In this document: in pieces, positions 4,869 to 40,208 of the stretch
How positions within the stretch are numbered: position 1 is the stretch's first letter
Layout: every line of letters starts with the position of its first letter
Virus record (IMG/VR): IMGVR_UViG_3300038393_002515
Length of the DNA: 64,000 nt
Strand: one strand, 5' to 3'
DNA from: a virus
Program-made: the position numbers and the translations under genes
Notes under the pieces: generated by a model
The model's input: only the letters and a program-made list of their open reading frames with translations
Told to the model about the DNA's origin: nothing
Database searches by the model: none

Positions 4869-4906
4869 GAAGGCCCGGATTGTGATCATCCGCAATCCGG
4901 GCCTTC
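4869..4906 (+). terminator. Hairpin, intrinsic-terminator-like, after the endolysin gene
   Basis: GAAGGCCCGGATTG (4869-4882) / CAATCCGGGCCTTC (4893-4906): 14-bp perfect stem, 10-nt loop. Confidence 0.6.
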
Positions 4907-4909
4907 GCC

Positions 4910-4945
4910 CTGTCTGGCATGCACGCGGCTGCCGCCAAGGGGTGA
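4910..4945 (+). promoter_or_regulatory. Bipartite late-gene element copy 2 (CTGTC-N24-GGGGTGA)
   Basis: Starts 4 nt after hairpin 4869-4906. GGGGTGA 4939-4945. Next start is ATG 4987. Confidence 0.6.
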
Positions 4946-4986
4946 AGACGCCCCCACACCACCACCCTGAAGCAGGAGTTGCGCCC

Positions 4987-5337
4987 ATGGCCCAGCAGAC
5001 CGACCCCACCACCCTGGGGGACCTGTGGCGGATGATCGAGCGTGACTCGAACCTCACCCGCGAACAGGTCAGGCGTGAGATCGACGACGTCAAGGGTCGT
5101 CTGCAGAGCTTCGTGACACGCGACCACTTCGAGGCCGAGAAGCGGCTGCTGGAGGCCCGCATCGACCACCTGGAGCAGGTCGTCGAGCGCTGGGAGCAAG
5201 AGGCCGAGGAGCAGGCCAGGTCGACCGCCGCCCAGGCCGACTCCCGCAGGCAGAGCCGCCGCGAGTTCGTCTACAAGGGGATCATCCCGGTCCTCGCCCT
5301 CGTTATCGCGGTCGTCTCCATCGTCGCCTCCCGCTGA
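4987..5337 (+). CDS. Tail-anchored membrane protein with coiled-coil (candidate lysis accessory / holin-like)
   Basis: MAQQTDPTT... with a charged heptad-like middle part and one C-terminal hydrophobic helix (GIIPVLALVIAVVSIVA). Sits directly after the endolysin. Function inferred from position only. Confidence 0.6.
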   Translation: MAQQTDPTTLGDLWRMIERDSNLTREQVRREIDDVKGRLQSFVTRDHFEAEKRLLEARIDHLEQVVERWEQEAEEQARSTAAQADSRRQSRREFVYKGIIPVLALVIAVVSIVASR

Positions 5338-5343
5338 GCCCTT

Positions 5344-5379
5344 GCTGTCGCTCCACCGGCGGCAGACCCCAAGGGCTGA
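5344..5379 (+). promoter_or_regulatory. Bipartite late-gene element copy 3 (GCTGTC-N23-GGGCTGA)
   Basis: One mismatch in the 3' box. CCACCGGC 5353-5360 pairs with GCCGGTGG 5404-5411, enclosing the SD GAGGGAGG and the start GTG 5408. Confidence 0.55.
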
Positions 5380-5407
5380 AGGAAACAGGCCGTTGAGGGA
5401 GGCGCCG

Positions 5408-8236
5408 GTGGGCGGCAAGTTCGAGCGCGGCGAGCGCCTGGAGCACCAGACGCTGGGCGTGCAGCGGCTCGCGGTGCGCTCCGAGGACTACTGGGAGTAC
5501 AAGCCCGAGCAGCGCGTCCGGACGATCGACGGCGTCACCGGCGTTGTCAAGCACGTCGAGGACGGACCCTTCCCCGGTGCTGAGGAGTATCACGTCGTCC
5601 TGGACCGGGGCATGGGTGGCGGCCAGTACACCGCCTCGCAGCTCAGCCCGGCCCCCATCACCACCGAGGCCATGGAGCAGACGGCGGCCGCCGACTACCC
5701 CGAGCTCTCCCAGATCCTCGTCGAGCGCCCGGACCCGGCCCGCCAGTTCGTCACGGCGGGCAAGAACCCCTTCGCCGATGACGACAACGACGATGACTCC
5801 TCTGACGAGGGCGACGACTCTCATGACGACTCGCAAGACGACCCACATGACGAGGACGACGACTCCGACGAGGACGACTCGGACGACGACTCCGACGACA
5901 AGGACGCTGACGGCGACGACGCGCCTCCGTGGGCCAAGAAGGCGTCCTCCCTCTTCTCCGACCTGGTTGTGACGGCTGCCACCGATGTCGACTTCCGCTT
6001 CCACATCACGGCCGCCTGGCGCGACGTGGTGGCCAAGGCCAAGCGGATCCGTTCCGAGGGCCGCCTGCGCGTCACTCTCGCCTCCGACGGCTACGTGTTC
6101 GGCGAGGTCAAGGGTGACCACCACGTGTACGAGACCGGCCTGCAGCGCCTGCCTGGCCGGGTGGCCGCGCACTCCTGGTCCTGCGGCTGCAAGTGGGGCG
6201 CCTACCACTGGGGCGCCGACGACGACTTCTCCCGGTTCGCCGGGCGCATGTGCTCCCACGCCCTGGCCCTGCAGTACGAGGCCCAGTCGAGGGGGATGTT
6301 CGGCCGCGACATTCACGTGGACGAGCACAAGCCCACCTGGGTGCCCCGCAAGGTCGTCGTCCGCTACGACATCGACGCCGACACCAACCGGCTCGCGCCG
6401 TCGACCGCCCGCAAGCTCGCCTCGTGGGACGCCCCTGAACCCTCCATGTGGGACATGCATTACGGCGACGACCACGACCACGAAGCCGAGCGCCAGGCCA
6501 AGTCGGACGAGTGGGACAGCATTCACGAGGGACTGGGGGACATCCATCGAGGCGTGAACGTCCACCTGCGCCCCGAGGATCACGCGATCGTCCACGACGA
6601 GTCCCGGCCGCTACACGAGCGCGCCCAGCACCTGCTCAAGTCGCTCCCGCACAGCGACCTGGGCCGTGGCCGCGAGGGCCTGGGACGACACTGGACCGAC
6701 AACGAGGGCGTGGCTGAGTCCTTCGGTGACATGGACGACCGCCCGAACCGGCACGGCACGCACCCGACCTCGGTCATCTTCCACGCCGAGAAGCCCGACC
6801 GGCACGCGATCGACGAGGACCCGGACCAGTCGGACGGGATGATCTACGGCTACCACGACCACGGCGAGAGCGAGATCCCGCTCCACCCTGGGGCCGGGGT
6901 GAACCTCAAGGGCATCTCCTGGAAGAACATGGACACGCCCGACGAGGACTTTCGGACCTTCAAGGGCGACGGCCTCTTCGATCACTACTGGGAGCACCAG
7001 CGTCACGACTTCCCGGGCGGCCAGCACGCCTACGCGTCGCTGAGCAAGGCCCCGTTGTCCACCGTCGCGCGCGCTGCCGTGGCGGCCGGTGAGGACAGTG
7101 CCGAGGTCGAGTTGGCCATGCGCACGGTGGGTATTCGACGGACGGCCAGCAGCTGGGACGAGTACCACGAGGACGAAAACGGCCGCCGGTACACCCTCGA
7201 CGAGGACGGCGAGCCGAACTACACCTGCCACAACAAGTACTGCGACGAGGGCGGCGAGCACGGCGGCGACGGCGAGACCGCACAGCGGCACGACGACGTC
7301 TACACCGACTGGGACACCGTTCACCCGCACCTCGGTCCGCACCTCCACCGGGGCATGGCCGTCAGCCTGCCGGACGACGTGCACGGCGTCGTCCATGACG
7401 ACGGCAGGCCGGTAGAAGAGCGCGCGAGCGCGCTGGCCGACCACCTTCGCGAAGAGGGGCTCGGTACGCACTGGACCCCGAACCACGACCAGGCCAGGCA
7501 CTACTCGGGCATCACCGACGGCCGGGACCGCGACACACACGTCATCCTGCACGCCCACACCCCGGCCAAGGAGCACATCGAGACCGACCCCGACGAGCTG
7601 GCCCGCCAGGACGTCATCGCCATGGGCGACCACGACGACGCCGAGGTGCCTCTGCAGTCCGGCGCCCCGGTGAAACTGAAGGGCATTTCCTGGAGGCACC
7701 GTACCGACAAAAAGTGGACCCGGCACGACTTCCCTGGCGGCCTGCAGCACGAGGCCAACGCCAACGCGCCGTTCGGAGAGCCGTCGGGGACGTCGTACGT
7801 GCTGCCCAAGGCGCCGGGTGCGACGGCGCCGAAGAAGCCGTGGGAGAACCCGGCCTCCGCCGGGCCGCTGGCGGGCGCGGACCCGGCGGGCTGGAACCGG
7901 CAGCTGCCGCTGCAGTCGTACGCGGGCATGGACACCGCGCTGTTCGAGCCCGGCGGTACGGAGGCGACGCTGCACGACGAGCCGGAGGGGGCGCTGCCGT
8001 CCACGGACGGTGCGGTGCCGACGGACGAGGCGTCGGATCTGACGCCGTCGATGACGGCGGGTCTGAAGCGGCAGGCGCTGAAGGACTTCACCTTGGCTGA
8101 GCAGCAGGCGCTGATCAACGAGGGCGAGAACGTGCGGGCGGCGAACCTCGACCGCCTGGACATCAAGGGGACCCACTACGCCGACCTGGAGAGCGTCCTG
8201 GCGGCACAGGAGGAGGACACCACATGGCTGGCCTGA
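5408..8236 (+). CDS. Large SWIM zinc-finger protein with poly-Asp tract and two tandem ~120-aa repeats (polyvalent/ejected-protein-like)
   Basis: SWIM signature SCGCKWGAYHW...RMCSHALAL (nt 6182-6259). Asp-rich run nt 5777-5920. Internal repeat HRG..V.L..D.H..VHD..RP..ERA...GLG.HWT...LKGISW at nt 6545-6928 and 7346-7699. Start taken as GTG 5408 after SD GAGGGAGG. Confidence 0.75.
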   Translation: MGGKFERGERLEHQTLGVQRLAVRSEDYWEYKPEQRVRTIDGVTGVVKHVEDGPFPGAEEYHVVLDRGMGGGQYTASQLSPAPITTEAMEQTAAADYPELSQILVERPDPARQFVTAGKNPFADDDNDDDSSDEGDDSHDDSQDDPHDEDDDSDEDDSDDDSDDKDADGDDAPPWAKKASSLFSDLVVTAATDVDFRFHITAAWRDVVAKAKRIRSEGRLRVTLASDGYVFGEVKGDHHVYETGLQRLPGRVAAHSWSCGCKWGAYHWGADDDFSRFAGRMCSHALALQYEAQSRGMFGRDIHVDEHKPTWVPRKVVVRYDIDADTNRLAPSTARKLASWDAPEPSMWDMHYGDDHDHEAERQAKSDEWDSIHEGLGDIHRGVNVHLRPEDHAIVHDESRPLHERAQHLLKSLPHSDLGRGREGLGRHWTDNEGVAESFGDMDDRPNRHGTHPTSVIFHAEKPDRHAIDEDPDQSDGMIYGYHDHGESEIPLHPGAGVNLKGISWKNMDTPDEDFRTFKGDGLFDHYWEHQRHDFPGGQHAYASLSKAPLSTVARAAVAAGEDSAEVELAMRTVGIRRTASSWDEYHEDENGRRYTLDEDGEPNYTCHNKYCDEGGEHGGDGETAQRHDDVYTDWDTVHPHLGPHLHRGMAVSLPDDVHGVVHDDGRPVEERASALADHLREEGLGTHWTPNHDQARHYSGITDGRDRDTHVILHAHTPAKEHIETDPDELARQDVIAMGDHDDAEVPLQSGAPVKLKGISWRHRTDKKWTRHDFPGGLQHEANANAPFGEPSGTSYVLPKAPGATAPKKPWENPASAGPLAGADPAGWNRQLPLQSYAGMDTALFEPGGTEATLHDEPEGALPSTDGAVPTDEASDLTPSMTAGLKRQALKDFTLAEQQALINEGENVRAANLDRLDIKGTHYADLESVLAAQEEDTTWLA
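5777..5920 (+). repeat. GAC/GAT-rich low-complexity tract encoding ~48 mostly Asp/Ser/Glu residues
   Basis: DDDNDDDSSDEGDDSHDDSQDDPHDEDDDSDEDDSDDDSDDKDADGDD, read directly from the frame of the 5408-8236 CDS. Confidence 0.9.
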
Positions 8237-8670: not shown

Positions 8671-8708
8671 CCGTCGAGCCGCCTTTCCGTTGAAGGGCGG
8701 CTCGACGG
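8671..8708. terminator. Bidirectional terminator-like hairpin between convergent genes
   Basis: CCGTCGAGCCGCC (8671-8683) / GGCGGCTCGACGG (8696-8708): 13-bp perfect stem. Lies between the + gene ending at 8658 and the - gene ending at 8711. Confidence 0.65.
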
Positions 8709-10548: not shown

Positions 10549-10561
10549 CGGTTCTCATCTC

Positions 10562-11173: not shown

Positions 11174-11178
11174 TGGCC

Positions 11179-11754: not shown

Positions 11755-11870
11755 GGCCTCCCCCCTCCGTGTGTCTAGTTGAAAAAAGTCGGCCCATGGA
11801 GGCGATCCTAGCGCCGCCGTAAGGATTCATGACACCGGGAACCCGGAAACGAGCTGAAGCGTCAGAAAAG

Positions 11871-11901
11871 TTGACACCAGCACCACTTGGCGTCATACGA
11901 T
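11871..11901 (+). promoter_or_regulatory. Possible sigma70(HrdB)-type promoter in the divergent control region
   Basis: TTGACA 11871-11876, then a 19-nt spacer, then TACGAT 11896-11901. The spacer is longer than optimal, so this is tentative. Confidence 0.25.
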
Positions 11902-11992
11902 CAGCTCAACAAACTGACAGACCGCGAACTGACGGGGGTGACGGGGCATGGGCGCAGCGCCGACAACCGCACCGATCCCCTTCTCGTGGATC

Positions 11993-12027
11993 CTGTCCGG
12001 GCGCACCTGTACGTCGGCAAGGGGCGA
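11993..12027 (+). promoter_or_regulatory. Bipartite late-gene element copy 4 (CTGTC-N23-GGGGCGA)
   Basis: CTGTC 11993-11997 and GGGGCGA 12021-12027. Next start is GTG 12053, after SD GAGGAG. Confidence 0.55.
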
Positions 12028-12052
12028 AGAGTCCCCGGCCCGAGGAGACAAG

Positions 12053-12358: not shown

Positions 12359-12390
12359 ACCGCCATCTACCGCTGACGAAGACCGGAGCC

Positions 12391-12437
12391 GAGCCCCGGC
12401 CGACCCACTTCCTCGCCAGGAAGGTCGGCCGGGGCTC
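12391..12437 (+). terminator. Strong terminator-like hairpin
   Basis: GAGCCCCGGCCGACC (12391-12405) / GGTCGGCCGGGGCTC (12423-12437): 15-bp perfect stem, followed by TCTCTGTATTG. Confidence 0.7.
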
Positions 12438-12494
12438 TCTGTATTGCCGGTCTGCGGGCGTCACGTTCTTCAACGACGCTTCGGGTGAACGGTA

Positions 12495-12686: not shown

Positions 12687-12721
12687 CTGTTCGTCACACC
12701 CCCTCCGCCCCCAAGGAGCGA
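12687..12721 (+). promoter_or_regulatory. Bipartite late-gene element copy 5 (CTGTT-N23-GGAGCGA, degenerate)
   Basis: CCCTCCGC 12701-12708 can pair with GCGAGGG 12718-12724 (one bulge). Next start is GTG 12762. Confidence 0.45.
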
Positions 12722-15700: not shown

Positions 15701-15794
15701 GAACTGCCGCAAGGCCCAGCTGCTCACCCCCGCCGAGCTGCAGGGCGAGTCTTCCGTCCCTCCGCCTGCTGTCCCGCAGCTGTCCCGGAGCTGA
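12762..15794 (+). CDS. Giant head-module fusion protein: N-terminal prohead-protease-like domain, central helical domain, Asp/Glu/Pro/Gly-rich tract, two zinc ribbons
   Basis: Start at GTG 12762, 7 nt after AGGAGG; the upstream part of the listed ORF is low-complexity and non-coding-like. N-terminal region FVGKPVFVNHVNDNHRRARGVIIDA...TSMGCDVERSVCSACG. CxxC pairs at nt 14751-14804 and 15598-15707. Sits directly upstream of the scaffold-like and capsid genes. The protease call is positional and motif-level only. Confidence 0.7.
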   Translation: MLKFATAQIIAASLGDQQRITRAAHRAVFQYEARPGFLYVRSRAISSRCNDNFDEFPAEEIEKSYKTFVGKPVFVNHVNDNHRRARGVIIDAALHRDRNPDGTPDTWAEVLMEIDAVRFPKLAKAILAGHIDRTSMGCDVERSVCSACGNEARTPTEYCSHIPHLKGKRIFRATASGKKVGELVRETCFGLRFFENSVLVEPPADPTAHFLGVDSSGLGKAASKSAAIDYSAFEDNDDLEADDDGEDTAPQPKPAYPASHAKSPVPHVPFEGTTHDHQRRQDAVQHARPFTPLKPSLNGLQATAAAKKPAPKAAEPEVDEYGTPKPKRGQPYEPAGDHPWYKQVPLHHSNIVDHWDKATDEEKDSGMRWYSDAHHVAKAIARLDPRIKTDEEAAHKGAGVLSAYSPRTNWPQNMFNAAHSFHRQAAVRPLKDDPDKPAHVTTMGMHADKAQRIMDGEHHQPVLNSPKTQDFAHLIEHGGYEPQTEEEKKSGAERRHSGRVVIDRHALSVAAGRRITDVENDAHQGFPGASSGKHARHYYEHAANTYRNAAAAISEKEGKPVAAHQVQAVTWLVRQRLNTAEDQANANASAKNLGAGRNKAEENIKGHWKDFAGEHTPELKEKGNSHVARLIDATYINDDGTIRAIAYGEIKAPADVDTLREENCPVCGDKDTFDGIQCQICGFINPPEQFRDPDLDKAKTLDLRKQIVDPSLVDDNGELQRVNDDGTGMPQEDGMPGDEEQQLGPDGQPLDEDGPQMVDPEQLDENGLPPSPWGDQTLDGTMQGAPTFSDRNGDGMIQPDEIDPDGNVNVQQNMMVDPEQGGQAGPRELPGRARDRTGDPFTPGPDMPRLQGPEGPEDGLDDEDTFQAGPGMGAPQEPILAHPGDYTGDESETPHWSWNRDVDEEPQAPNEDEDPQDPRRRRLGMSAAPRTPKDGQPNDGAPDLSCPHCGFGADATAPQTQDMGNPQGATDGIVAGDVCPNCRKAQLLTPAELQGESSVPPPAVPQLSRS

Positions 15795-15859
15795 AGCGGT
15801 GAAAACCCGCCCACGGCAAGTCGTCGTGAGCTGAAACAGGCTTTGAAGGAGTAACCAGT

Positions 15860-16741: not shown

Positions 16742-16771
16742 AGAGGGCCTGGCACTTACGCCAGGCCCTCT
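16742..16771 (+). terminator. Terminator-like hairpin
   Basis: AGAGGGCCTGGC (16742-16753) / GCCAGGCCCTCT (16760-16771): 12-bp perfect stem, 6-nt loop. Confidence 0.65.
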
Positions 16772-16804: not shown

Positions 16805-16840
16805 CTGTCTCCCACCCCATTGCCAGCGCCTAGGGGGTGA
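16805..16840 (+). promoter_or_regulatory. Bipartite late-gene element copy 6 (CTGTC-N24-GGGGTGA)
   Basis: Follows hairpin 16742-16771. GGGGTGA 16834-16840. Next start is ATG 16896. Confidence 0.6.
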
Positions 16841-18429: not shown

Positions 18430-18476
18430 TCATGAACCCCTAACGGGGGATCGACTCCTGGATCTGGCATGATCAA

Positions 18477-18511
18477 CGAAGGCCCCCTCGGTCGCTGCGA
18501 GGGGGCCTTCG
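18477..18511 (+). terminator. Strong terminator-like hairpin after the capsid gene
   Basis: CGAAGGCCCCCTCG (18477-18490) / CGAGGGGGCCTTCG (18498-18511): 14-bp perfect stem, 7-nt loop. Confidence 0.7.
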
Positions 18512-18744
18512 TCATGCCCACTGGCTTCGGGGGCGCCGCCATAGGCTCTGGCCTTCCAGCTCGTGGGCGGTGGCTGGTGGCCATCGTGAGCCCTGGCCCC
18601 CGAAGGGGGACCAGGGTCACCGCCGGGCGTTGCGCTCGGTGTGTCGTCTGGCGGGTGACATATTCTCACCTTGGCACAGTCGGGGCGTAGTTGGAACCCC
18701 ACCTTCAGTAATTCTGGCCGCTGGAGAGAATTTTGGCCATGGTC

Positions 18745-18780
18745 GCTGTCTCCTGGCCCGCTGAGATCCTTAGGGGGTGA
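18745..18780 (+). promoter_or_regulatory. Bipartite late-gene element copy 7 (GCTGTC-N23-GGGGTGA), orphan copy inside the non-coding spacer
   Basis: GGGGTGA 18774-18780 followed by GGAGGG, but no convincing ORF. The next feature is hairpin 18832-18866. Confidence 0.55.
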
Positions 18781-18831
18781 GGAGGGTTTGTGGTGGGCCC
18801 TCTGTGCGGCTCCGTTCTCCGGCCGCTGGGC

Positions 18832-18866
18832 CTCGACCCCCGGGTTCCCCCTTCCCGGGGGTCGAG
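18832..18866 (+). terminator. Terminator-like hairpin
   Basis: CTCGACCCCCGG (18832-18843) / CCGGGGGTCGAG (18855-18866): 12-bp perfect stem. Confidence 0.6.
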
Positions 18867-18867
18867 T

Positions 18868-18903
18868 GCTGTCTGGGGTGGGGTTGGGCTGCTCAAGGGG
18901 TGA
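18868..18903 (+). promoter_or_regulatory. Bipartite late-gene element copy 8 (GCTGTC-N23-GGGGTGA)
   Basis: Begins 2 nt after hairpin 18832-18866. Next start is ATG 18937, after SD AGGAGG. Confidence 0.6.
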
Positions 18904-18936
18904 CGGAGGATCCGTCCCTTTGATCTAGGAGGCGTC

Positions 18937-20630: not shown

Positions 20631-20648
20631 GTTCAGCTGGTCTGGCGG

Positions 20649-20674
20649 CCCCGTCCCACGACTCCGGGACGGGG
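20649..20674 (+). terminator. Terminator-like hairpin
   Basis: CCCCGTCCC (20649-20657) / GGGACGGGG (20666-20674), followed by CTGCTTGCTGTT. Confidence 0.6.
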
Positions 20675-20680
20675 CTGCTT

Positions 20681-20716
20681 GCTGTTCGTGGCCCTCTCGC
20701 GGCCGCCAAGGGGCGA
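20681..20716 (+). promoter_or_regulatory. Bipartite late-gene element copy 9 (GCTGTT-N23-GGGGCGA)
   Basis: GCCCTCTC 20691-20698 pairs perfectly with GAGAGGGC 20729-20736, which is the SD of ATG 20741. Confidence 0.55.
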
Positions 20717-24844: not shown

Positions 24845-24879
24845 CTGTCCGCGCCTCCTCCGCCGCCCTCAAGGGGTGA
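24845..24879 (+). promoter_or_regulatory. Bipartite late-gene element copy 10 (CTGTC-N23-GGGGTGA)
   Basis: GCGCCTCCTC 24851-24860 pairs perfectly with GAGGAGGCGC 24883-24892 (SD). Start GTG 24894 follows directly. Confidence 0.65.
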
Positions 24880-24893
24880 GCAGAGGAGGCGCC

Positions 24894-26293: not shown

Positions 26294-26328
26294 GCTGTCC
26301 GGCCCGCCTCTCGCACCCCAAGGGGTGA
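26294..26328 (+). promoter_or_regulatory. Bipartite late-gene element copy 11 (GCTGTC-N22-GGGGTGA)
   Basis: GCCCGCCTC 26302-26310 / GAGGAGGGC 26331-26339 (one mismatch) sequesters the SD of ATG 26344. Confidence 0.6.
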
Positions 26329-26343
26329 CGGAGGAGGGCTGCC

Positions 26344-28005: not shown

Positions 28006-28039
28006 CTGTCCACCGCCGCCCCGTCAGCCCAAGGGGTGA
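28006..28039 (+). promoter_or_regulatory. Bipartite late-gene element copy 12 (CTGTC-N22-GGGGTGA)
   Basis: GTCAGC 28023-28028 / GCTGAC 28042-28047 places CCAAGGGGTGACA in a loop. Sheath ATG is at 28068. Confidence 0.6.
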
Positions 28040-29670: not shown

Positions 29671-29673
29671 TCT

Positions 29674-29709
29674 GCTGTCCGTGGTCGCCCTCCCCGCCGT
29701 AGGGGGTGA
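29674..29709 (+). promoter_or_regulatory. Bipartite late-gene element copy 13 (GCTGTC-N23-GGGGTGA)
   Basis: Begins 4 nt after hairpin 29641-29670. CCGTAGG 29697-29703 / CCTACGG 29712-29718. Tube ATG is at 29734. Confidence 0.6.
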
Positions 29710-34903: not shown

Positions 34904-34938
34904 CTGTGAAGAGACCTCTTTCGCCCACCAAGGGGCGG
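34904..34938 (+). promoter_or_regulatory. Bipartite late-gene element copy 14 (CTGTG-N23-GGGGCGG)
   Basis: CCACC 34925-34929 / GGTGG 34940-34944, plus outer GAGA/TCTC pairing. Start is GTG 34949. Confidence 0.5.
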
Positions 34939-34948
34939 AGGTGGTCTC

Positions 34949-37432
34949 GTGCCGAATTTCGTCCTGGCCCCGGGCGTGAAGGCATACATCGCGACGGAGA
35001 AGCACGGAATCATCGACGTCTCGGACGACCTTGTCGAGGGCTCGATGACGCGCCGGTCGGACGGCGTCAGCTCATTCAATTTCAGCCTGCAGAACACCCG
35101 GCGGAAGTACGACGGCGTGCTCACCCCGAACGACCGCATCTCGGTGCAGATGAAGCGGCTGAAGTGGGTGCAGGTCTTCACCGGCTACCTGAACAAGGTG
35201 CCGCTCGTGACGGCCTGGCCGCGTGTCGTCCACCTGACCGCTTCGTGCTCGCTGAAGCGGCTGCAGTACTGGTACTGGGACTCCCACGCCGAGGCGTCGC
35301 AGGCCATGGTGCGCCAGGCCCTGGAGGACGCGGGGAAGGACACCGGTGTCTCCGACGGCGGCATGACGAATGTCGCGCTCACCGTGCTGAAGAAGGTCGT
35401 CGGCTGGCCCGAGTCGAAGGTCCACATCGCCCGTATCCCGGGCACCTGGTTCTCCGTCGTCGAGACCCTGGCCAAGCAGATCAACGCCCAGCTCGACGAC
35501 GCCGACGAGATCGCGCGTGCCCTGTTCGAGCAGCTTGGCACCGCGTCCGTCGGCGGTACGGGCGGTGCCGACGCCAGCTCGCTGAACGGCACCTACGGCG
35601 GGTTCAACAACCCGGACCAGAAGGCCAACGCCGCGATCATCTACAACGTCGGCAAGGAGAAGGGCGGCTCCGGCCGCGACTGCATCATCGCGATCATGGT
35701 GGCGATGCAGGAGTCAGGCCTGCGCAACCTCAAGGGGGGCGACCGGGACAGCGCAGGCCTGTTCCAGCAGCGGCCCTCACAGGGCTGGGGTACGTACGAG
35801 CAGGTGACGGACCCTCGGTACGCGTCGGGGAAGTTCTTCGACGCCCTCTTCGAGGTCAAGAACCGCAACAGCATGGAGCTGTGGCAGGCATGCCAGGCCG
35901 TGCAGCGCTCCGGGGTCCCGAGGGCGTACGCGAAGCGCGAGAAGCCTGCGACCGCCATGGTGCGCGACCTGGAAAAGGGCGGCGGGAAGTACGGGGACCT
36001 CAAGTCGAAGCCCCAGGGCACCATCTCCGGCGTCGACCTGGCCCAGCTCGCGGTGAACTTCTGCCAGAAGTACCCGAACATCCCGTACACCCAGAAGTAC
36101 GGCGGCACCCAGCTCGACGTACTCTCGCAGAACCCCCCGCCCGGCCTGGACTGCTCCAGCTTCGTGCAGGCCATGTACCTGCGCGCGTTGGGCTCGCTGT
36201 ACGGCCTGCCGCGCGTGGCGTCCGCGCAGTACGACGCCTGCAAGAAGGTGTCGGTGGAGAAGGCGCTGAAGACGCCCGGGGCGCTCGTCTTCAAGGGGTC
36301 CTCGCCGGACGGCATCTACCACGTCGAGATGAGCCTGGGTGACGGCAAGAGCACGATCGGCGCGCACCGCGCCGGGGCCAAGCCGCACGACGTCGGCATC
36401 AACCCGCCGTCGGCGCCGTCGTACTGGGACTACGGCGGCTTCCTGCCTCGCGTCGCGTACACCACCGGCGCGGGCACGGTCATCTTCGAGGGGTCGGACG
36501 GCACCAGCGGCGGCGTCAACGACATGAGCGGCGATCCCGGGGTCGAGCTGTCCACCGGCGCCGACGCGCCTGGGTACAACCCCAAGGACCCGTTCGACAA
36601 GATGTTCGGCGACAACGCCTGGGCGCCGATCTCGACGGCGGAGAACGACCCGAACTACTTCCTGGCCCAGGCTCTGGCCGGACCGCGTGCGCTGCTGAAC
36701 GACCAGCCGCTGCTGCCTTACCTGAAGAACCTGTTCAACTCGACGATGCGGAGCTTCTGCAGCGCACCGAATGGTGACCTGATCGCCTGGTACCCGGACT
36801 ACTACGGGATGTGGGGCACGGCCGCCAAGATGGTCATCCAGCCCATCGAGGTGCAGGACTTCGAGGTGTCCTGGTCGGACGACTACATGGTCACCCACCA
36901 GTTCGTCGTCACCTCGCCGCAGACGCGAAACCTCTTCGACCCGGCGACTGGAACCGTGCAGCAGTCCGTCGCTGACTCCGTCCTGGCGAACATGGCCGTC
37001 TTCACCACGGGCGTCGTCACCGTCGACTTCCCGGGCGTGTGGAAGGCCCTGTTCGGGATGGACATGACGGAGAAGCAGGCGAAGGCGTACGCGGACTCGA
37101 TCAAGCAGCGGTTCGGTGCCCGGCCGGACTACCAGCAGCTCCCTGGTCTCGTCGGCCCGAAGGCGCAGCTGTTCACTGCGATCTTCCTGTTCATGCGGCA
37201 GTTCGCCTTCCAGTACCAGGCGTCCATTCCGTTGACCTTCATGCCGGAGCTGTGGCCGGGCATGCTGCTGCAGTTCCCGGCCTTCAACTTCCAGGCGTAC
37301 GTCACGACGGTGACGCACAGCTTCAAGTTCGGCGAGGGCGGTTACTTCAACACCTCGGTCAGCATCGCGGCCCCGGCCCGTCTCACCGGTGACAAGAAGC
37401 TGCTCGGCCTGCCGATGGCGGGAGGCAACTGA
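34949..37432 (+). CDS. Baseplate hub (gpD/gp27-like N-terminus) carrying two cell-wall hydrolase domains including NlpC/P60
   Basis: N-terminus resembles late-control-D/hub proteins. Middle region has ...MVAMQESGLRNLKGGDRDSAGLFQQRPSQGWGT (muralytic-domain-like). NlpC/P60 signature GLDCSSFVQAMY...GIYHVEMSLGDGKSTIGAH. Confidence 0.8.
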   Translation: MPNFVLAPGVKAYIATEKHGIIDVSDDLVEGSMTRRSDGVSSFNFSLQNTRRKYDGVLTPNDRISVQMKRLKWVQVFTGYLNKVPLVTAWPRVVHLTASCSLKRLQYWYWDSHAEASQAMVRQALEDAGKDTGVSDGGMTNVALTVLKKVVGWPESKVHIARIPGTWFSVVETLAKQINAQLDDADEIARALFEQLGTASVGGTGGADASSLNGTYGGFNNPDQKANAAIIYNVGKEKGGSGRDCIIAIMVAMQESGLRNLKGGDRDSAGLFQQRPSQGWGTYEQVTDPRYASGKFFDALFEVKNRNSMELWQACQAVQRSGVPRAYAKREKPATAMVRDLEKGGGKYGDLKSKPQGTISGVDLAQLAVNFCQKYPNIPYTQKYGGTQLDVLSQNPPPGLDCSSFVQAMYLRALGSLYGLPRVASAQYDACKKVSVEKALKTPGALVFKGSSPDGIYHVEMSLGDGKSTIGAHRAGAKPHDVGINPPSAPSYWDYGGFLPRVAYTTGAGTVIFEGSDGTSGGVNDMSGDPGVELSTGADAPGYNPKDPFDKMFGDNAWAPISTAENDPNYFLAQALAGPRALLNDQPLLPYLKNLFNSTMRSFCSAPNGDLIAWYPDYYGMWGTAAKMVIQPIEVQDFEVSWSDDYMVTHQFVVTSPQTRNLFDPATGTVQQSVADSVLANMAVFTTGVVTVDFPGVWKALFGMDMTEKQAKAYADSIKQRFGARPDYQQLPGLVGPKAQLFTAIFLFMRQFAFQYQASIPLTFMPELWPGMLLQFPAFNFQAYVTTVTHSFKFGEGGYFNTSVSIAAPARLTGDKKLLGLPMAGGN

Positions 37433-37702: not shown

Positions 37703-37720
37703 AGAATCCGAGCCGTCCAA

Positions 37721-37744
37721 ATCTGTGACATGCATGTCACAGAT
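37721..37744. repeat. Palindrome copy 2: ATCTGTGACATGCATGTCACAGAT (parS-like candidate)
   Basis: 24-bp perfect palindrome with the same 16-bp core, 7 nt beyond the parB-like stop (37751). Confidence 0.9.
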
Positions 37745-37750
37745 CCTGAG

Positions 37751-38635
37751 TCAGCCGGTGAGCAGGCCTTCGGCCTCGGCCACCCTCTTCTTCATGTCCT
37801 CGACGTACTCCTCGGCGGACTGCCGGTCGACCTTGACCAGCTCCTGGAGGAGCGCCAGGTCGATCTTCCCGGCGGCACGGGCCTCCTTCAGGCGGACGTC
37901 GACAGGACGCGGCTGGCGAGCGGTGATCTCCTTGGGCCCTTTGGCGGCCAGGGCGGTGGCCTCCATGAGGCGGCGGAGGTGCCTCACCGCCGAGATGGTC
38001 ACCGGGCCCTCCTTTGCCAGCTCGGTGTACTTGGCGCGGAGGAGGTCGTGGTCGTCCTTGCCAATGGTGTACAGCTCGTCCACGACGTTCTGGGCCAGCG
38101 GCTCGGTCAGCAGGCCATCGAGCGCGGTGTAGACGACGTGATGCTTGATCGCGCGGTAGTAGGTGTGCCGCTCGATGCCGATGGAGTGGGCGAACTTCTC
38201 GACGGACTTGTGGCCGCCCGCCTTGTAGCTGCCCTTGGCCTGGACCTCGGCGAGCCAGCGGCCGGTGAGGGTCCAGTAGTTCTTCTCGATCTCGGCGAAC
38301 CCGCTGCCAGCCGCCTCGCCGATCTTGCGGATCTGGCGTTCCGCGTGCGCGAGGTGCTGCAGGTCGCTGATGTCGTCCGGCGCGGGGACGTACTGGAAGG
38401 GGTCGGCGGGCTCCGGGGAGTGGACGATCCCTTCAAGAGGCGCCTGAGCGACCTGGTGGGGCACCTGCGGCTCATCGGCCGGTTCGCTCACAGCGGCGGC
38501 GGCAGCGGCTTCCAGCTCATCGTCCTCGCCTCGGCGGGCCTGAGAGCTGACGGCCTGAGCGGCGGCCAGCGCCGCTGCGGCCCGCTTCTGGGCGGCGGTC
38601 TGCTTCGGCTTCGGTGCGACAGTCACTCGGCCCAT
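37751..38635 (-). CDS. Partition-operon partner protein (ParB-analogue/centromere-binding candidate) with an HTH
   Basis: Translationally coupled to the ParA gene (TGATG at 38633-38637). Ala-rich acidic N-terminus and an HTH-like segment KSVEKFAHSIGIERHTYYRAIKH. No classical ParB GxxRxxA box seen. Confidence 0.6.
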   Translation of the reverse strand: MGRVTVAPKPKQTAAQKRAAAALAAAQAVSSQARRGEDDELEAAAAAAVSEPADEPQVPHQVAQAPLEGIVHSPEPADPFQYVPAPDDISDLQHLAHAERQIRKIGEAAGSGFAEIEKNYWTLTGRWLAEVQAKGSYKAGGHKSVEKFAHSIGIERHTYYRAIKHHVVYTALDGLLTEPLAQNVVDELYTIGKDDHDLLRAKYTELAKEGPVTISAVRHLRRLMEATALAAKGPKEITARQPRPVDVRLKEARAAGKIDLALLQELVKVDRQSAEEYVEDMKKRVAEAEGLLTG

Positions 38636-39432
38636 CAGGCGGCCAGTCCCTTCATGAGGTGGCGGAACAGCAGGCCGAACTCTTCGAGGTGGCCTCGCTT
38701 CGGGGTGGTCTCCCAGGCGCGCGGGTAGTCCGGGGAACCGCTGATCTGGAACTCCTTCGGCACGACGGCTGCCTTAACCCGGGAGGGGTCCTCGGCTTTG
38801 ACGATGGCCTCCAGGACGGGGCGCTGCTCGTCGGCGAGCGTGTTGTTGCCGGAGCACTTCACCAGGAAGACCGAGACGGCGAGATCCGGGTTGGCCTTGG
38901 TGCCCTTGGCTGCCTGGCGGATCGACGCCTTGATGCGGGAGATCTCGAAGCCGGACGGGGCGACGGGGAGGATCACCATGTTGGCGACCTTGCACATCTC
39001 CCAGTACGTCTCCTTGCCTGCGCCGCCGATGTCGACGATGACGACCTGGTAGGACTTCTTGAGTTCCTCGATCACGTCGTCGAGGTCCGGTCCGTCTTCG
39101 TCCTTGGGGTCGTAGTTGACGAGGTCGAAGGGGACGTGCTCGGGGGCGGGGTTCCCCTCGTCGTCGACTCGGTTCTCGCGGATCCGGTACCAGTTGTCGA
39201 CCGTCTGGGAGTTGTCGTCGGTGTCGACCACCGCAACCTTCAGGCCGAGGAGGATGGACAGGTACAGCGCCAGGAAGATCGCGCTGGTCGTCTTGCCGGT
39301 GCCTCCCTTGAGGACGCCGATCCCGATGACGAGGCAGCCGTTCTCGTCGAGCCACGCGAAGATCTCCTCGCGCGACGCGGCCTGTGCCATCACCTTCTTG
39401 TGCTGTTGTCTGGGGAGCGTAGAAGTCTTCAC
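38635..39432 (-). CDS. parA: ParA/Soj-family partition ATPase
   Basis: Deviant Walker A VLKGGTGKTTSAIFLA, then VVDTDDNSQ and VIVDIGGAG boxes. Start placed at GTG 39432 (SD AGGAAGG 6 nt upstream); ATG 39390 is an alternative. The listed start 39552 would overlap the divergent gene. Confidence 0.8.
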   Translation of the reverse strand: MKTSTLPRQQHKKVMAQAASREEIFAWLDENGCLVIGIGVLKGGTGKTTSAIFLALYLSILLGLKVAVVDTDDNSQTVDNWYRIRENRVDDEGNPAPEHVPFDLVNYDPKDEDGPDLDDVIEELKKSYQVVIVDIGGAGKETYWEMCKVANMVILPVAPSGFEISRIKASIRQAAKGTKANPDLAVSVFLVKCSGNNTLADEQRPVLEAIVKAEDPSRVKAAVVPKEFQISGSPDYPRAWETTPKRGHLEEFGLLFRHLMKGLAA

Positions 39433-39504
39433 TCCGGGTCCCTTCCTAGGCGGTTGTCGCCCCACATCTTGCCGCACCGGCGTTGCCCGGGTGCGCAGGA
39501 CCCC

Positions 39505-39539
39505 GTGTTTCACCCCCGATTTGAAGCGGAAGGGGGTGA
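39505..39539 (+). promoter_or_regulatory. Bipartite late-gene element copy 15 (GTGTT-N23-GGGGTGA, degenerate 5' box)
   Basis: TCACCCCC 39510-39517 pairs with GGGGGTGA 39532-39539. SD GGAGGTGG and ATG 39551 follow. Confidence 0.45.
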
Positions 39540-39550
39540 GGAGGTGGCTC

Positions 39551-39979
39551 ATGAAGACGCTGGCTCTCGTCGGCGGTGACCTGGCACTGGGGGATGGCGG
39601 CTACCGGACGCTCACCGGCGCGGCCCGCATCCGGCAGGACCTGGCGCTCGCGCTCGCCGAGCCGTACGGCCACGACACCTACCACCCGCAGTTCGGGTCG
39701 GTGCTGGCCGCGCACATCGGTGAGCCGCTGACGCCGGAATTGGAGCTGCTGGTCCGCGCGGAGGTCGTGCGGGTGGTCCAGCAGTACGTGGACGGCCAGC
39801 AGGCTCAGATCGCAGCCGACGCCCTGTCCGGTTCCCGGTCACGGTTCAGCTTCCAGGATGTGGTGCAGTCGGTGCAGTCCATCAGTACGGACATCCAGTA
39901 CGACACGATCAAGGTGACCATCGCGCTGAAGACGCAGTCCGGCGGTACGGTCCGAGTGCTGCGGACGGTGAGCACCTGA
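39551..39979 (+). CDS. Baseplate wedge protein, gp25/GPW-like
   Basis: 142 aa. MKTLALVGGDLALGDGGY...IRQDLALAL...G...P.FGS pattern typical of the GPW/gp25 family. Precedes the J-like gene. Confidence 0.7.
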   Translation: MKTLALVGGDLALGDGGYRTLTGAARIRQDLALALAEPYGHDTYHPQFGSVLAAHIGEPLTPELELLVRAEVVRVVQQYVDGQQAQIAADALSGSRSRFSFQDVVQSVQSISTDIQYDTIKVTIALKTQSGGTVRVLRTVST

Positions 39980-39981
39980 TT

Positions 39982-40001
39982 CTGTGACATGCATGTCACA
40001 G
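39982..40001. repeat. Palindrome copy 3: CTGTGACATGCATGTCACAG (parS-like candidate)
   Basis: 20-bp perfect palindrome identical to the core of copy 2, 3 nt after the gp25-like stop. Confidence 0.9.
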
Positions 40002-40135
40002 GTCCGCTGAATCGGTATGGTGGTGCGCCTCGGGCGACGCGCGTCCGATTCAGCAGAAGACCTCACCGCTCCGAACCGGGTGACGCCGGGGAGCACCGGG
40101 GTCGGCGCGGCCCCCAGTTCCAGCTGGAGGCAGAA

Positions 40136-40172
40136 GGCGGAGTCCACCCATAGGGACTCCGCCTTCATTTTT
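40136..40172 (+). terminator. Canonical rho-independent terminator
   Basis: GGCGGAGTCC (40136-40145) / GGACTCCGCC (40154-40163), followed by TTCATTTTT. Confidence 0.75.
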
Positions 40173-40208
40173 GCTGTGCGGTGCCTTCCTCTCGTCCTCA
40201 AGGGGTGA
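40173..40208 (+). promoter_or_regulatory. Bipartite late-gene element copy 16 (GCTGTG-N23-GGGGTGA)
   Basis: Abuts the terminator's T-tract. GCCTTCCTCTCGTC 40183-40196 pairs with GACGAGAAGGAGGGC 40207-40221 (one bulged A), burying the SD AAGGAGG. ATG is at 40227. Confidence 0.65.

Follow-up and report, generated by a model that had tools for sequence, protein, structure and literature searches.

The window, by which we mean the whole 64-kb stretch of viral DNA analyzed, contains lysis genes, virion genes, and a replication block. An element made of two boxes, with the consensus CTGTC-N21-(A/T)AGGGG(G)TGA, recurs ~19 times across it, always on the + strand. The copies end 9–57 nt 5′ of the start codons of lysis and virion genes, which are the gene class bearing the element in the window, and every start codon so preceded also has its own GGAGG. 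The copies, with CTGTC referred to as box 1 and the G-rich sequence as box 2, were located as follows.

3922..3956, + strand: element, CTGTC-N21-AAGGGGTGA; precedes the endolysin gene 3989-4858
4910..4945, + strand: element; precedes the gene for a 116-aa membrane protein, 4987-5337
5345..5379, + strand: element, box 2 AAGGGCTGA; precedes a 940-aa gene
11993..12027, + strand: element, AAGGGGCGA; in a divergent gap; precedes gene 12053-12358
12687..12721, + strand: element, CTGTT-N21-AAGGAGCGA; precedes the prohead-protease-like gene 12762-15794
15769..15802, + strand: element, AAGCGGTGA; overlaps the end of the upstream gene; precedes gene 15860-16729
16805..16840, + strand: element, TAGGGGGTGA; precedes gene 16896-17408 and the capsid gene
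18746..18780, + strand: element; putative driver of the candidate small RNA that it precedes
18869..18903, + strand: element; precedes gene 18937-19320
20682..20716, + strand: element, CTGTT...AAGGGGCGA; precedes gene 20741-21400
24845..24879, + strand: element; precedes gene 24894-25565
26295..26328, + strand: element; precedes gene 26344-27099
28006..28039, + strand: element; precedes the tail sheath gene 28068-29594
29675..29709, + strand: element, TAGGGGGTGA; precedes the tube-like gene 29734-30237
34904..34939, + strand: element, CTGTG...AAGGGGCGGA; precedes the gene for an 827-aa virion protein, 34949-37432
39505..39539, + strand: weak element, GTGTT...AAGGGGGTGA; in a divergent gap; precedes the baseplate gene 39551-39979
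40174..40208, + strand: element; precedes the baseplate wedge gene 40227-42077
43699..43733, + strand: element, AAGGGGTGC; precedes the gene for a 1393-aa tail protein
48796..48829, + strand: element, AAGAGGTGA; precedes gene 48858-50456

The preliminary description of this DNA had placed copies at, or within 1 nt of, 4910, 16805, 18746, 18869, 20682, 29675, and 40174, and an element was present at each. Approximately 12 more copies, an eighth post-gene hairpin (12388-12437), and stems enclosing box 2 go beyond that description. The copy at 39505..39539 is uncertain, as its box 1 is imperfect and its box 2 overlaps the ribosome-binding site (RBS).

A strict version of the pattern matched the window nine times, where 0.28 matches were expected, and every match was on the + strand. 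From 3.9 to 49 kb, the element fills 16 of the 19 same-strand gaps of ≥50 nt, and the gaps of the replication block hold no copy. Both divergent gaps in the same region also carry the element, and because each of these needs a new promoter, its presence there supports reading it as one. Single boxes were common and unbiased between the two strands (GGGGTGA, 14 vs 14; CTGTC, 78 vs 48), so specificity resides only in the spaced pair. Across 137 unique copies, sequence information was limited to the two boxes, with spacer and flanks free, and the distance from CTGT to GTGA was 26 nt in 102 of them (range 25–28).

Several features count against a promoter. The 21-nt gap between the boxes exceeds the canonical 17 ± 1 spacing of sigma-70 promoters. 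The window boxes, CTGTC and AAGGGGTGA, are unlike the consensus of the host principal sigma factor (TTGACA / TAnnnT), and a sigma-70 scan gave no match at the element sites; a phage-specific or alternative factor would therefore be required to read them. We detected no AT peak around the element beyond box 2 itself, which is G-rich rather than AT-rich. Read from the sequence, box 2 is close to the complement of the anti-Shine-Dalgarno (AGGAGGTGA apart from an A-to-G change, which preserves a G.U pair). The motif itself appears to be undescribed so far.

Hairpins downstream of genes

Several copies of the element lie behind a hairpin that follows the preceding gene. The hairpins in the window were as follows.

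4866..4909, + strand: hairpin after the endolysin gene, abutting box 1; -39.2 kcal/mol, z -8.4; tail CTGTCTGG
12388..12437, + strand: hairpin after gene 12053-12358; 15-bp stem, 17-nt loop; tail TCTGTATT
16742..16771, + strand: hairpin after gene 15860-16729; -33.0 kcal/mol, z -8.1
18476..18512, + strand: hairpin after the major capsid gene 17443-18429; -33.2 kcal/mol, z -7.5
18832..18866, + strand: hairpin abutting the next element; -33.8 kcal/mol, z -5.1; tail TGCTGTCTGG
20644..20679, + strand: hairpin after the gene for an fn3-domain protein, 19623-20630; -32.6 kcal/mol, z -6.4
29600-29632 and 29637-29674, + strand: two tandem hairpins after the sheath gene; z -5.1 for the pair
40133..40172, + strand: hairpin and T-tract, stem 40133-40166; -27.6 kcal/mol, z -6.6

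The seven strong hairpins reported in the preliminary description are real, with z-scores of -5 to -8.4 and, at all seven loci, none of 200 dinucleotide shuffles folding as well. The eight hairpins lie 7–155 nt after stop codons, most within ~50 nt, with that at 40133 at 153 nt. Five pairs have 0–7 nt between the hairpin end and CTGT, and the pair at 16805 has 33 nt. The claim that hairpin and element follow each other within 0–60 nt thus holds for six pairs, whereas the seventh (18476-18512 and 18746) is separated by 234 nt. For four or five hairpins, the tail position is indeed taken up by CTGT, and TCTGT also follows the hairpin at 12437, where there is no box 2.

The stem at 40133-40166, which had been called a canonical terminator cutting the baseplate operon, has the sole canonical T-tract (ATTTTTG; ATTTTTGC) and was the sole hairpin flagged by a terminator scan. 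With a criterion of ≥5 U in the 8 nt directly 3′ of the stem, 12388-12437 nominally passes (5 T in 8), though the scan left it unflagged because of its 17-nt loop; the remaining hairpins have 1–4 T in 8. Six of the seven originally described hairpins therefore have no U-tract, and "terminator," which had been applied to all seven, is for these six a putative label. Terminators poor in U-tracts have been reported in actinobacteria, where their efficiency is disputed, and the hairpins here may be leaky terminators or 3′ stabilizers.

An upstream hairpin was present at only 6–7 of the ~19 copies in the window and, among relatives, at 23% of copies compared to 2.9% of control sites (8-fold), so "terminator, element, gene" does not describe a general unit. 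We consider it possible, though on balance doubtful, that the adjacency has no function of its own: very short intergenic gaps would bring a terminator into contact with the promoter that follows, and compaction of the genome would leave CTGT in the "U-tract position." Most gaps are indeed 53–166 nt, the majority of copies have no hairpin, and box 1 carries the same flanking TG equally in hairpin-free copies. The hairpin at 16805 stands 33 nt off, and this distance is kept in orthologues. Compaction does not, however, readily account for the enrichment that persists within intergenic space, where six of the eight hairpins lie ≤40 nt upstream of an element (p ~2e-4). Nor does it account for distances that pile up at 0–3 nt in 23 of 48 hairpin-bearing copies from diverged relatives, or for the recurrence of "hairpin + (T)TGCTGT" behind the capsid gene both in ScottMcG and in distant clades. 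The capsid-gene hairpin is retained as a structure in at least 54 of 78 relatives, with >45 distinct stem sequences.

Downstream of the capsid gene, we also observed a candidate non-coding RNA.

18781..18868, + strand: candidate ~85-nt non-coding RNA; three stem-loops, ending in hairpin 18832-18866

It is highly conserved, with frame-breaking indels only in linkers and one compensatory pair; in hairpin 18832 itself, a compensatory G-C/A-U change was seen. Rfam gave no match at the gathering threshold anywhere in the window and only chance-level matches within 18400-18950.

Stems formed by the spacer

A second kind of structure was found downstream of box 1. In 7–8 copies, the spacer pairs with the Shine-Dalgarno (SD) region of the downstream gene itself (z -4 to -7).

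5349..5414, + strand: stem, spacer paired with the downstream leader/RBS; z -5.1
24851..24892, + strand: stem, GCGCCTCCTC paired with GAGGAGGCGC (SD), box 2 at the apex; z -5.2
26300..26341, + strand: stem covering the SD GGAGGAGGG; z -4.0
34911..34948, + strand: stem; z -4.4
40178..40226, + strand: stem, spacer paired with GACGAGAAGGAGGGCGCCGC up to the ATG; -39.7 kcal/mol, z -7.0
43710..43750, + strand: stem, CCCTCCGGCGTC paired with GACGCCGGAGGG; z -4.1
48800..48847, + strand: stem, CGCCTCCCTCG paired with CGAGGGAGGCG; z -5.2

The stem begins just 3′ of box 1, with the spacer as its 5′ arm and box 2 at its apex; its 3′ arm includes GGAGG and extends to the start codon. The arm sequences differ from copy to copy, each matching the leader of its own gene. 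This specificity was clear in duplex energies, which averaged -26.1 kcal/mol for spacers with their own leaders vs -21.4 kcal/mol for mismatched pairs (permutation p <5e-5). The stems include G.U pairs and are more stable on the sense than on the antisense strand. In orthologue sets, pairs were kept in 97–98% of cells vs 40–65% in slid controls. Covariation did not beat its control, with one two-sided change per set and shuffles doing as well in 115/500 and 214/500 trials. In E3, the same stem design surrounds a different box, GCATCAATWGG, which is not SD-like and occupies the same positions.

These stems raise an alternative in which the element acts in RNA, on long read-through late transcripts, as a processing, stability, or translation-control module. 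Single-stranded CUGUC by or between stem-loops, together with the SD-like AAGGGGUGA at a stem tip, could be an endonuclease site at which the polycistron is cut into gene-sized units with protective hairpins; it could instead serve as a standby or "STAB-SD" site for ribosomes, or be bound by a phage translational activator able to open a masked RBS. An RNA-level role is conceivable given that box 2 is near the anti-SD complement and sits at the apex of significant, sense-biased stems whose 3′ arm is the real SD. The G.U pairs, the occurrence of CTGT in the linker between an upstream hairpin and a downstream stem (for example, 40166-40178), the TCTGT behind the hairpin at 12437, and the lack of resemblance of either box to a known host promoter all fit such a role. 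We nevertheless judge it unlikely. Spacing held to ±1 nt over a free spacer is typical of one protein complex on duplex DNA, and an RNA site has no obvious need of it. Half of the copies form no stem around box 2 (e.g., 16805, 28006, 18869, and 15769), so the element does not include the stem, and the box of E3 stands at the same positions without being SD-like. At both divergent junctions, no upstream gene on the same strand could supply the RNA. Finally, expression of the structural genes would be crippled if every transcript carried a mask of -35 to -40 kcal/mol over its SD.

The layout also resembles the start-associated sequences (SAS/ESAS) of cluster K mycobacteriophages, which are conserved and asymmetric, contain an SD, and precede many genes of these actinobacteriophages in one orientation, about half with inverted repeats. 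SAS is a 13-mer, GGGATAGGAGCCC, immediately before the start codon, and the function of SAS and ESAS is unknown (PMC3203893). SAS was ruled out here, as box 2 stands 9–57 nt away from the start codons and the GGAGG of each gene is a separate sequence; ESAS was ruled out since its 17-bp repeats are conserved, whereas the arms here differ for each copy.

The element in related phages

Across 1.17 Mb of sequence from relatives, the element occurred 167 times on the gene strand and twice on the opposite strand, with the box spacing fixed and the spacer not conserved. The complete relative pRLB1-9.1, deposited as a Streptomyces plasmid, contains 12 strict copies (12 vs 0 by strand), 10 of them within its contiguous late block, whereas its ~65 kb of small early genes has none. 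Diverged clades carry cognate boxes at the same places (AAGAGGTGA, AAGAAGTGA, and AAGGAGTGA), as does ScottMcG (TAATAGGTGA and GAATAGATGA). In L007, an insertion displaced the CTGTC of the hairpin tail, and a second CTGTC stands at the correct spacing.

Some relatives persist in Streptomyces assemblies as stand-alone replicons of ~151–157 kb, one of them the deposited plasmid, and they encode ParA, a ParB-domain protein, two tyrosine recombinases, and several HTH regulators. Such persistence would also suit operator-like sites at which a phage regulator keeps the late genes of a phage-plasmid prophage silent or gated, the copies then not being promoters. The model would be the one-orientation intergenic "stoperators" of cluster A mycobacteriophages, at which a bound repressor blocks elongation. 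Stoperators (the sites of L5 gp71) are each one contiguous 13–14-mer bound by the immunity repressor. One-orientation intergenic 13-mers have been described in clusters A and CA, with a proposed role in repressor binding (PMC10986025). The copies here are likewise numerous, intergenic, and of one orientation relative to transcription units. We regard this as very improbable, however. Here there are two short boxes (5–7 and 9–10 nt) with 21 free bases between them, ~2.5 helical turns, a layout that fits the footprint of a polymerase better than that of a repressor and does not match a cluster A-type stoperator. The copies keep to late genes and are not distributed across both arms, they stand at a promoter-like distance before each gene and at divergent junctions, and no repressor is linked to them.

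A candidate late promoter

We consider it probable that the bipartite element is a phage-specific late promoter, a reading built on strand specificity, fixed spacing around a free spacer, position, gene class, the divergent junctions, and conservation across the family. The same features favor the suggestion in the preliminary description that each block is re-initiated at its own element. Antitermination or RNA processing, which had been offered as the other option, is not needed to explain the layout, though either may still operate.

The scheme we infer covers promoter activity, start position, termination, and translational masking. In it, (T)GCTGTC would serve as a -35-like box and (A/T)AGGGG(G)TGA, at its fixed distance, as a -10-like box, both read by host RNA polymerase redirected by a putative phage-encoded specificity factor. 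Transcription would start a few bases after box 2, and each late mRNA would then begin just upstream of its own RBS; for the shortest leaders (34904 and 39505), such a start leaves little or no room for the SD. The hairpins upstream of approximately a quarter to a third of the copies would belong to the preceding gene as intrinsic terminators and/or 3′-end stabilizers, shielding the next promoter from read-through. These putative terminators follow the endolysin gene, genes for the most abundant virion proteins (capsid and sheath), and the gene for the fn3-domain protein. As they are mostly poor in U-tracts, they would probably be leaky. In the 7–8 copies with a spacer complementary to the SD, this spacer would hide the downstream RBS in read-through RNA, and RNA started at the element would lack the 5′ arm and be translatable.

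This is the logic of T4 genes e, soc, 49, and I-TevI, in which the promoter lies inside the DNA encoding the 5′ strand or loop of a helix that sequesters the SD or start, so that read-through RNA is untranslatable and promoter-initiated RNA is translated (PMC3014915). In their geometry, 7–8 copies here fit that design if transcription starts after box 2, but the putative masking extends to virion genes and is not confined to lysis or accessory genes as in T4, and the phage infects a high-GC actinobacterium. Late promoters are numerous in T4, and the candidate promoters here are likewise many, short, phage-specific, and placed before individual late genes. The T4 late promoter is, however, a single -10 box, TATAAATA, read by gp55 together with gp33 and the sliding clamp, as opposed to two G/C-rich boxes 21 nt apart, and no protein resembling gp55 was identified.

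In Staphylococcus Kayvirus, 12 late promoters stand alongside 42 terminators, and a promoter directly follows a terminator that late transcription of vB_SauM-515A1 largely reads through (PMC7698491). For the phiKZ-like phage 201phi2-1, the counts are 67 promoters and 132 terminators (PMC11512511). As in these phages, we see a phage-specific late consensus in the structural region, many hairpins, and candidate promoters directly behind candidate terminators. The Kayvirus late promoter differs in having a long -10 box and no -35 box and in being read by a phage sigma factor that has been annotated; poly-T tails mark the Kayvirus terminators, whereas six of seven hairpins here have no T-tract. 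The punctuation of the structural genes had been called unusual, which does not hold for large lytic-type myoviruses, since T4, Kayvirus, and phiKZ-like phages are alike in this respect. Use of the element by this large Streptomyces phage, often behind a terminator-like hairpin, is neat but essentially an ordinary late-gene layout for big phages.

A search for a full-length sigma factor found none. The candidate factors, which come from the complete relative, are a 130-aa sigma-70 region 4 protein that narrowly passed its Pfam threshold (26.6 vs 25.7 bits) and has no recognizable sigma-2 domain, a 201-aa WhiB-family protein with a C-terminal extension, and a LuxR/GerE HTH protein. At WhiA/WhiB promoters of Streptomyces, WhiB docks on region 4 of sigma-A and a sigma-4-like HTH reads the 5-nt asymmetric GACAC near the -35 position, on either strand and with variable spacing (PMC10243135). 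The phage family similarly encodes WhiB-family and sigma-4-domain proteins, though nothing ties them to the element; CTGTC differs from GACAC in sequence and stands on one strand at fixed spacing. A more specific proposal, which we would regard as a long shot, is that the host sigma-A polymerase has its -35 recognition taken over by the region-4-only and/or WhiB-family protein, with the spacer acting in addition as an RBS mask. Such a takeover, if true, would parallel in actinobacteria the "sigma appropriation" by T4 AsiA/MotA, and together with the mask would make the late proteins of a Streptomyces phage-plasmid hang on one transcriptional and translational switch.

The principle of phage late transcription is unchanged by these results. 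If the element is a late promoter, the recurring stems over the RBS would suggest that T4-style dependence of late translation on the late promoter had an independent origin in a high-GC Gram-positive system. The element would then point to a small phage protein that retargets the host polymerase and would supply parts (promoter, terminators, and RBS mask) for engineering Streptomyces phages. It would also be the first candidate late-promoter consensus for a large, poorly studied, and mostly metagenomic group, the ~155-kb actinobacterial myoviruses related to Bxz1/Myrna, some of which are stand-alone replicons in Streptomyces, and would allow late transcription units to be annotated from sequence alone in hundreds of contigs.

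Gene content, relatives and host

The window has a G+C content of 68%, and almost all of its genes lie on the + strand. Gene products were named from PHROG and Pfam scans of the window, and gene starts are our own GC3-based estimates, which are approximate.

Genes named in the window
1018-3918, tail-spike-like protein
3989-4858, endolysin
12762-15794, prohead-protease-like protein
17443-18429, major capsid protein
28068-29594, tail sheath
29734-30237, tube-like protein
39551-39979 and 40227-42077, baseplate proteins
up to ~55 kb, further tail proteins
55-64 kb, helicases and exonuclease

The capsid protein shares ~59% identity with its counterparts in Bxz1/Myrna-type mycobacteriophages, Rhodococcus phage E3, and Gordonia phage Skog, and no close DNA relative of the window was found among deposited phages. 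Close relatives, with 78–98% capsid identity, are ~155-kb IMG/VR contigs; others are stand-alone contigs of 151–157 kb within Streptomyces genome assemblies (loci L116–L121), and one is deposited as the circular Streptomyces plasmid pRLB1-9.1 (NZ_CP041653.1, loci L122–L124). Streptomyces sp. RLB1-9 and cg35 both have the replicon, at 151–154 kb. As these relatives occur as stand-alone contigs or a plasmid in Streptomyces assemblies, the host of the window phage is Streptomyces. Four relatives (L054, L057, L118, and L120) have a G+C content of only 46–50%, yet their capsid proteins are 76–82% identical to that of the 68% G+C window phage, so the hosts of this family differ widely in base composition.

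Plasmid pRLB1-9.1 encodes two tyrosine recombinases and ParA (window orthologue 38635-39393, minus strand), and a ParB-domain annotation sits on its orthologue of window gene 12762-15794. Stand-alone replicons with this gene content suggest a phage-plasmid or carrier state; we found no published description of them as such, and in one paper on strain RLB1-9, pRLB1-9.1 is not presented as a phage. Within the virion gene block of the window lies a ThyX-type thymidylate synthase gene (23742-24461), and nowhere else does the window show DNA similarity to cultured Streptomyces phages. The 251-aa product of 26344-27099 is possibly an ADP-ribosyltransferase, judging by a sub-threshold match to Arr-ms of the rifampin ADP-ribosyltransferase family (21.6 bits against a cut-off of 25).

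A two-box element upstream of late genes

The element has the consensus (T)GCTGTC, 20–22 free bases, and (A/T)AGGGG(G)TGA. In the window we counted 9 matches to the strict pattern where 0.28 were expected, and a relaxed scan yielded ~19 distinct copies, all on the + strand, with 39505 (weak box 1), 12687, and 15769 as weak members.

Start coordinates of element copies in the window (relaxed scan)
3922, 4910, 5345, 11993, 12687, 15769, 16805, 18746, 18869, 20682, all +
24845, 26295, 28006, 29675, 34904, 39505, 40174, 43699, 48796, all +

The region from 3.9 to 49 kb has 19 same-strand gaps of 50 nt or more, and 16 of them contain the element. The element also fills both divergent gaps (11755-12052 and 39394-39550), sites that require a promoter of their own, and no copy was found in the gaps of the replication block. 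Copies lie 9–57 nt upstream of the start codon, and each such gene has a separate GGAGG-type ribosome-binding site, for which reasons we rejected box 2 as the actual ribosome-binding site. Taken singly, both boxes are frequent in the window and were judged not strand-biased (GGGGTGA, 14 versus 14 by strand; CTGTC, 78 versus 48); specificity therefore resides in the spaced pair.

The late block is broken by two minus-strand cassettes, 8711-11754 and 37751-39393. One encodes a DUF6545/MAB_1171c-type putative transporter and a weak PAP2-like protein, and the second ParA and a gene without assigned function. In both, the convergent boundary carries a hairpin (8671-8708 and 37719-37746) and the divergent boundary a copy of the element.

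Across 1.17 Mb of related loci, hits to the pattern numbered 167 on the gene strand and 2 on the opposite strand; here, as in all counts across loci, many relatives are near-duplicates and do not represent independent events. Of 137 unique copies, 102 have a CTGT-to-GTGA distance of 26 nt (overall range, 25–28). Information content is limited to the two boxes, with spacer and flanks free, and a mobile or duplicated intergenic repeat was rejected on this ground. At the sheath-to-tube junction, relatives retain the boxes and the hairpin while the spacer drifts, and in relative L007, where an insertion moved the CTGTC of the hairpin tail away, a second CTGTC stands at the proper spacing. All 12 strict copies in the complete relative pRLB1-9.1 lie on the gene strand, 10 of them inside a contiguous lysis/virion block and the others at 39.5 and 56.2 kb. 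The small early genes, ~65 kb in total, contain none.

Diverged clades carry the box forms AAGAGGTGA, AAGAAGTGA, or AAGGAGTGA, and box 2 variants across the family include AAGGGGTGA, AAGAAGTGA, and GCATCAATWGG. In Bxz1-type phage ScottMcG, TAATAGGTGA and GAATAGATGA occupy equivalent gaps, and the capsid terminator is followed by TTTCTGCTGTT. The E3 form, GCATCAATWGG, has no consistent upstream box and is found intergenically on the gene strand before structural genes (14838, 22819, 25678, 26738, 34313, and 35975 of locus L001). Some of these copies stand behind hairpins, and one lies within an inverted repeat masking a ribosome-binding site. GCATCAATWGG is probably the cognate late promoter of E3.

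Of the two options left by the preliminary description, re-initiation at each element, or antitermination or RNA processing, the evidence favors the first. From a box spacing constant to ±1 nt, an unconserved spacer, a single orientation, placement just upstream of one functional gene class and at divergent junctions, and family-wide conservation, we infer that the element is, on balance, a phage-specific late promoter read on duplex DNA. Transcription would start a few bases past box 2, such that late mRNA would begin at or just before the Shine-Dalgarno sequence. A scan for host-type sigma-70 promoters gave 0–1 per 20 kb, not above shuffles, with none at elements. Sigma-B/F-type (GGGTA -10 box) and ECF-type motifs misfit in spacing and boxes. 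In known WhiA/WhiB promoters, GACAC can lie on either strand and its spacing varies (PMC10243135), so the element, which also differs in sequence, is not of that type. A stoperator-like regulator site would suit a family that resembles phage-plasmids, yet the two-part motif and its confinement to late genes make it very improbable. Direct comparison also rejected identity with stoperators and with the cluster K SAS/ESAS motifs.

No sigma factor was found encoded within the window, and a wHTH protein (57089-58609, minus strand) is its one clear DNA-binding product. Three proteins of pRLB1-9.1 are candidates only for reading the element, whose recognition mechanism is possibly unusual.

Candidate recognition factors in pRLB1-9.1
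L123 1744-2136 (pRLB1-9.1 51744-52136), 130-aa protein with sigma-70 region 4 only (Pfam 26.6 versus a threshold of 25.7 bits) and no recognizable sigma-2 domain
L122 37436-38008, WhiB-family protein, 190–201 aa, with a ~140-aa C-terminal extension
L122 35899-36138, LuxR/GerE HTH protein, 79 aa

Hairpins and stems around the element

All seven hairpins named in the preliminary description exist, and none of 200 dinucleotide shuffles folded as well.

Hairpins of the + strand named in the preliminary description
4866-4909, z -8.4
16742-16771, z -8.1
18476-18512, z -7.5
18832-18866, z -5.1
20644-20679, z -6.4
29637-29674, with a second just upstream at 29600-29632, z -5.1 for the pair
40133-40166, z -6.6

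Six adjoin an element as proposed, and the seventh (18476-18512) is separated from the copy at 18746 by 234 nt. With hairpin 12388-12437, which had been missed, these class A hairpins follow the endolysin gene, a small gene (12388-12437), a 289-aa gene (15860-16729), the capsid gene, a candidate small RNA, an fn3-domain protein gene, the sheath gene (tandem pair), and a gp25-like baseplate gene. Among the ten strongest + strand hairpins of the window (≤ -25 kcal/mol), six end 0–33 nt before an element copy; the others lie at a convergent junction (one), after the capsid gene (18476-18512), and within genes (two). Counting intergenic bases only, the position of six of eight intergenic hairpins ≤40 nt upstream of an element has p ~2e-4. 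In relatives, a hairpin of ≤ -25 kcal/mol occurs in the 45 nt upstream of 23% of element copies versus 2.9% of control CTGT sites. Upstream hairpins are thus a minority feature, and "hairpin, then element, then gene" does not hold as a general unit.

CTGT was indeed seen in the tail position after hairpins 4866, 18832, 20644, 29637, and 40133, and 23 of 48 hairpin-bearing copies in relatives have the hairpin end 0–3 nt from CTGT; in orthologues of 16805 the distance is ~33 nt. This tight abutment may arise largely from compaction; that it has no function of its own is possible though rather doubtful, and is compatible with the late-promoter explanation. Of 78 loci, at least 54 preserve the capsid-gene hairpin as a structure, through more than 45 different stem sequences, and it directly precedes CTGTCTGG in several clades. 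Stem sequence differs in each hairpin, and protein-binding palindromes were rejected accordingly.

A reading as canonical intrinsic terminator fits only 40133-40166, which has a real T-tract and was the sole report of a terminator scan. Tails elsewhere are T-poor (1–4 T in 8, except 40133 and, nominally, 12388, TCTGTATT), so the hairpins would be at best weak intrinsic terminators or 3′-end protectors. They may terminate or stabilize the preceding message and shield the next promoter, placed after genes whose products would be needed in greatest amount.

The 500-nt post-capsid gap is conserved in close relatives. Region 18430-18745 holds the capsid terminator and a further hairpin at 18591-18616 (CCCTGGCCCCCGAAGGGGGACCAGGG), as well as a conserved GGTGACATATTCTCACC at ~18655-18672; in more distant relatives, this position is taken instead by tRNAs, HNH genes, or reverse-strand genes. 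In L054, a sequence resembling tRNA genes directly follows the capsid terminator, which there has a proper T-tract. Between two tandem element copies, 18781-18868 is a candidate non-coding RNA of ~85 nt, highly conserved in relatives, folding into three stem-loops of which the last is hairpin 18832-18866. It shows one compensatory A-U/G-C pair, and 1–3 nt indels that would break any reading frame fall in linkers only; there was no Rfam match. A 37-aa ORF here (18790-18903) was rejected for low GC3 by eye and frame-breaking indels in orthologues. The 250 nt between hairpin 12388-12437 and element 12687 (12438-12686) appear by eye A+T-richer than their surroundings (e.g., AAACTCTTAATAAGTCTATTTGTCGCC) and contain no convincing ORF.

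Gap-by-gap folding revealed a second class of structure, class B, that the preliminary description had not noticed: the strongest fold in many gaps spans the element itself. The inter-box spacer is complementary to the leader just past box 2, including the Shine-Dalgarno sequence.

Class B stems in the window, by element copy
40174, z -7.0
24845, z -5.2
48796, z -5.2
5345, z -5.1
34904, z -4.4
43699, z -4.1
26295, z -4.0
29675, z -3.3

Folding gave no stem around 16805 or 28006. Evidence for these stems comes from comparison among different copies within the window, where pairing of a spacer with its own leader averages -26.1 kcal/mol versus -21.4 when mismatched (permutation p < 5e-5). Orthologues retain the pairs in 97–98% of cells versus 40–65% for slid controls, with only one two-sided change per orthologue set, which did not beat the shuffle control. 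Among element copies near the capsid and sheath genes of relatives, the signal is weak (-16.8 versus -15.5 kcal/mol), because long-leader copies dominate these loci. E3 shows the same stem design around its own box (CTGCCTCCCGC, box, GCGGGAGGCAG-TTTTG). G.U pairs are present and the sense strand is mostly more stable than the antisense, which points to a role in sense RNA containing the spacer.

Such features could also fit an element acting in RNA, through processing, stability, or translational control: box 2 is almost an anti-Shine-Dalgarno complement and forms the tip of these sense-biased stems, CTGT falls in single-stranded linkers, and a hairpin with TCTGT occurs without box 2 at 12388-12437. 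However, box spacing is fixed, some copies have no stem, the E3 box is not Shine-Dalgarno-like, and copies stand at divergent junctions, so we consider an RNA-level role unlikely. Under the late-promoter reading, we infer masking: class B stems would form solely in read-through RNA from upstream and hide the ribosome-binding site, and element-started RNA would lack the 5′ arm. This layout matches that of T4 genes e, soc, 49, and I-TevI, for which masking of the ribosome-binding site in read-through RNA is documented (PMC3014915).

Known systems and gene calling

No published description of the motif, or of transcription in this phage group, was found; the Rhodococcus phage WC1 transcriptome concerns the unrelated cluster CA. 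Neither the element nor the window matched known RNA families, and no tRNAs were found. Large virulent-type myoviruses normally have multiple late promoters alternating with terminators, and late promoters are numerous in T4. In Kayvirus there are 12 late promoters and 42 terminators, with one promoter directly after a terminator that late transcription reads through (PMC7698491), and 201phi2-1 has 67 promoters and 132 terminators (PMC11512511). The suggestion that such punctuation is unusual is therefore not supported.

Calls of the first start in an ORF at 3953, 24876, and 28059 begin at the GTG within box 2 (AAGGG-GTG-A) or just after it and over-extend the genes, and the TGA of box 2 terminates short spurious ORFs (18790-18903 and 40080-40208). 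We class the element and its surroundings as a putative phage-specific late promoter with terminators and T4-like masks of the ribosome-binding site, an arrangement whose overall kind is already known. Across this phage family, automatic annotation will tend to mis-call starts at box 2.
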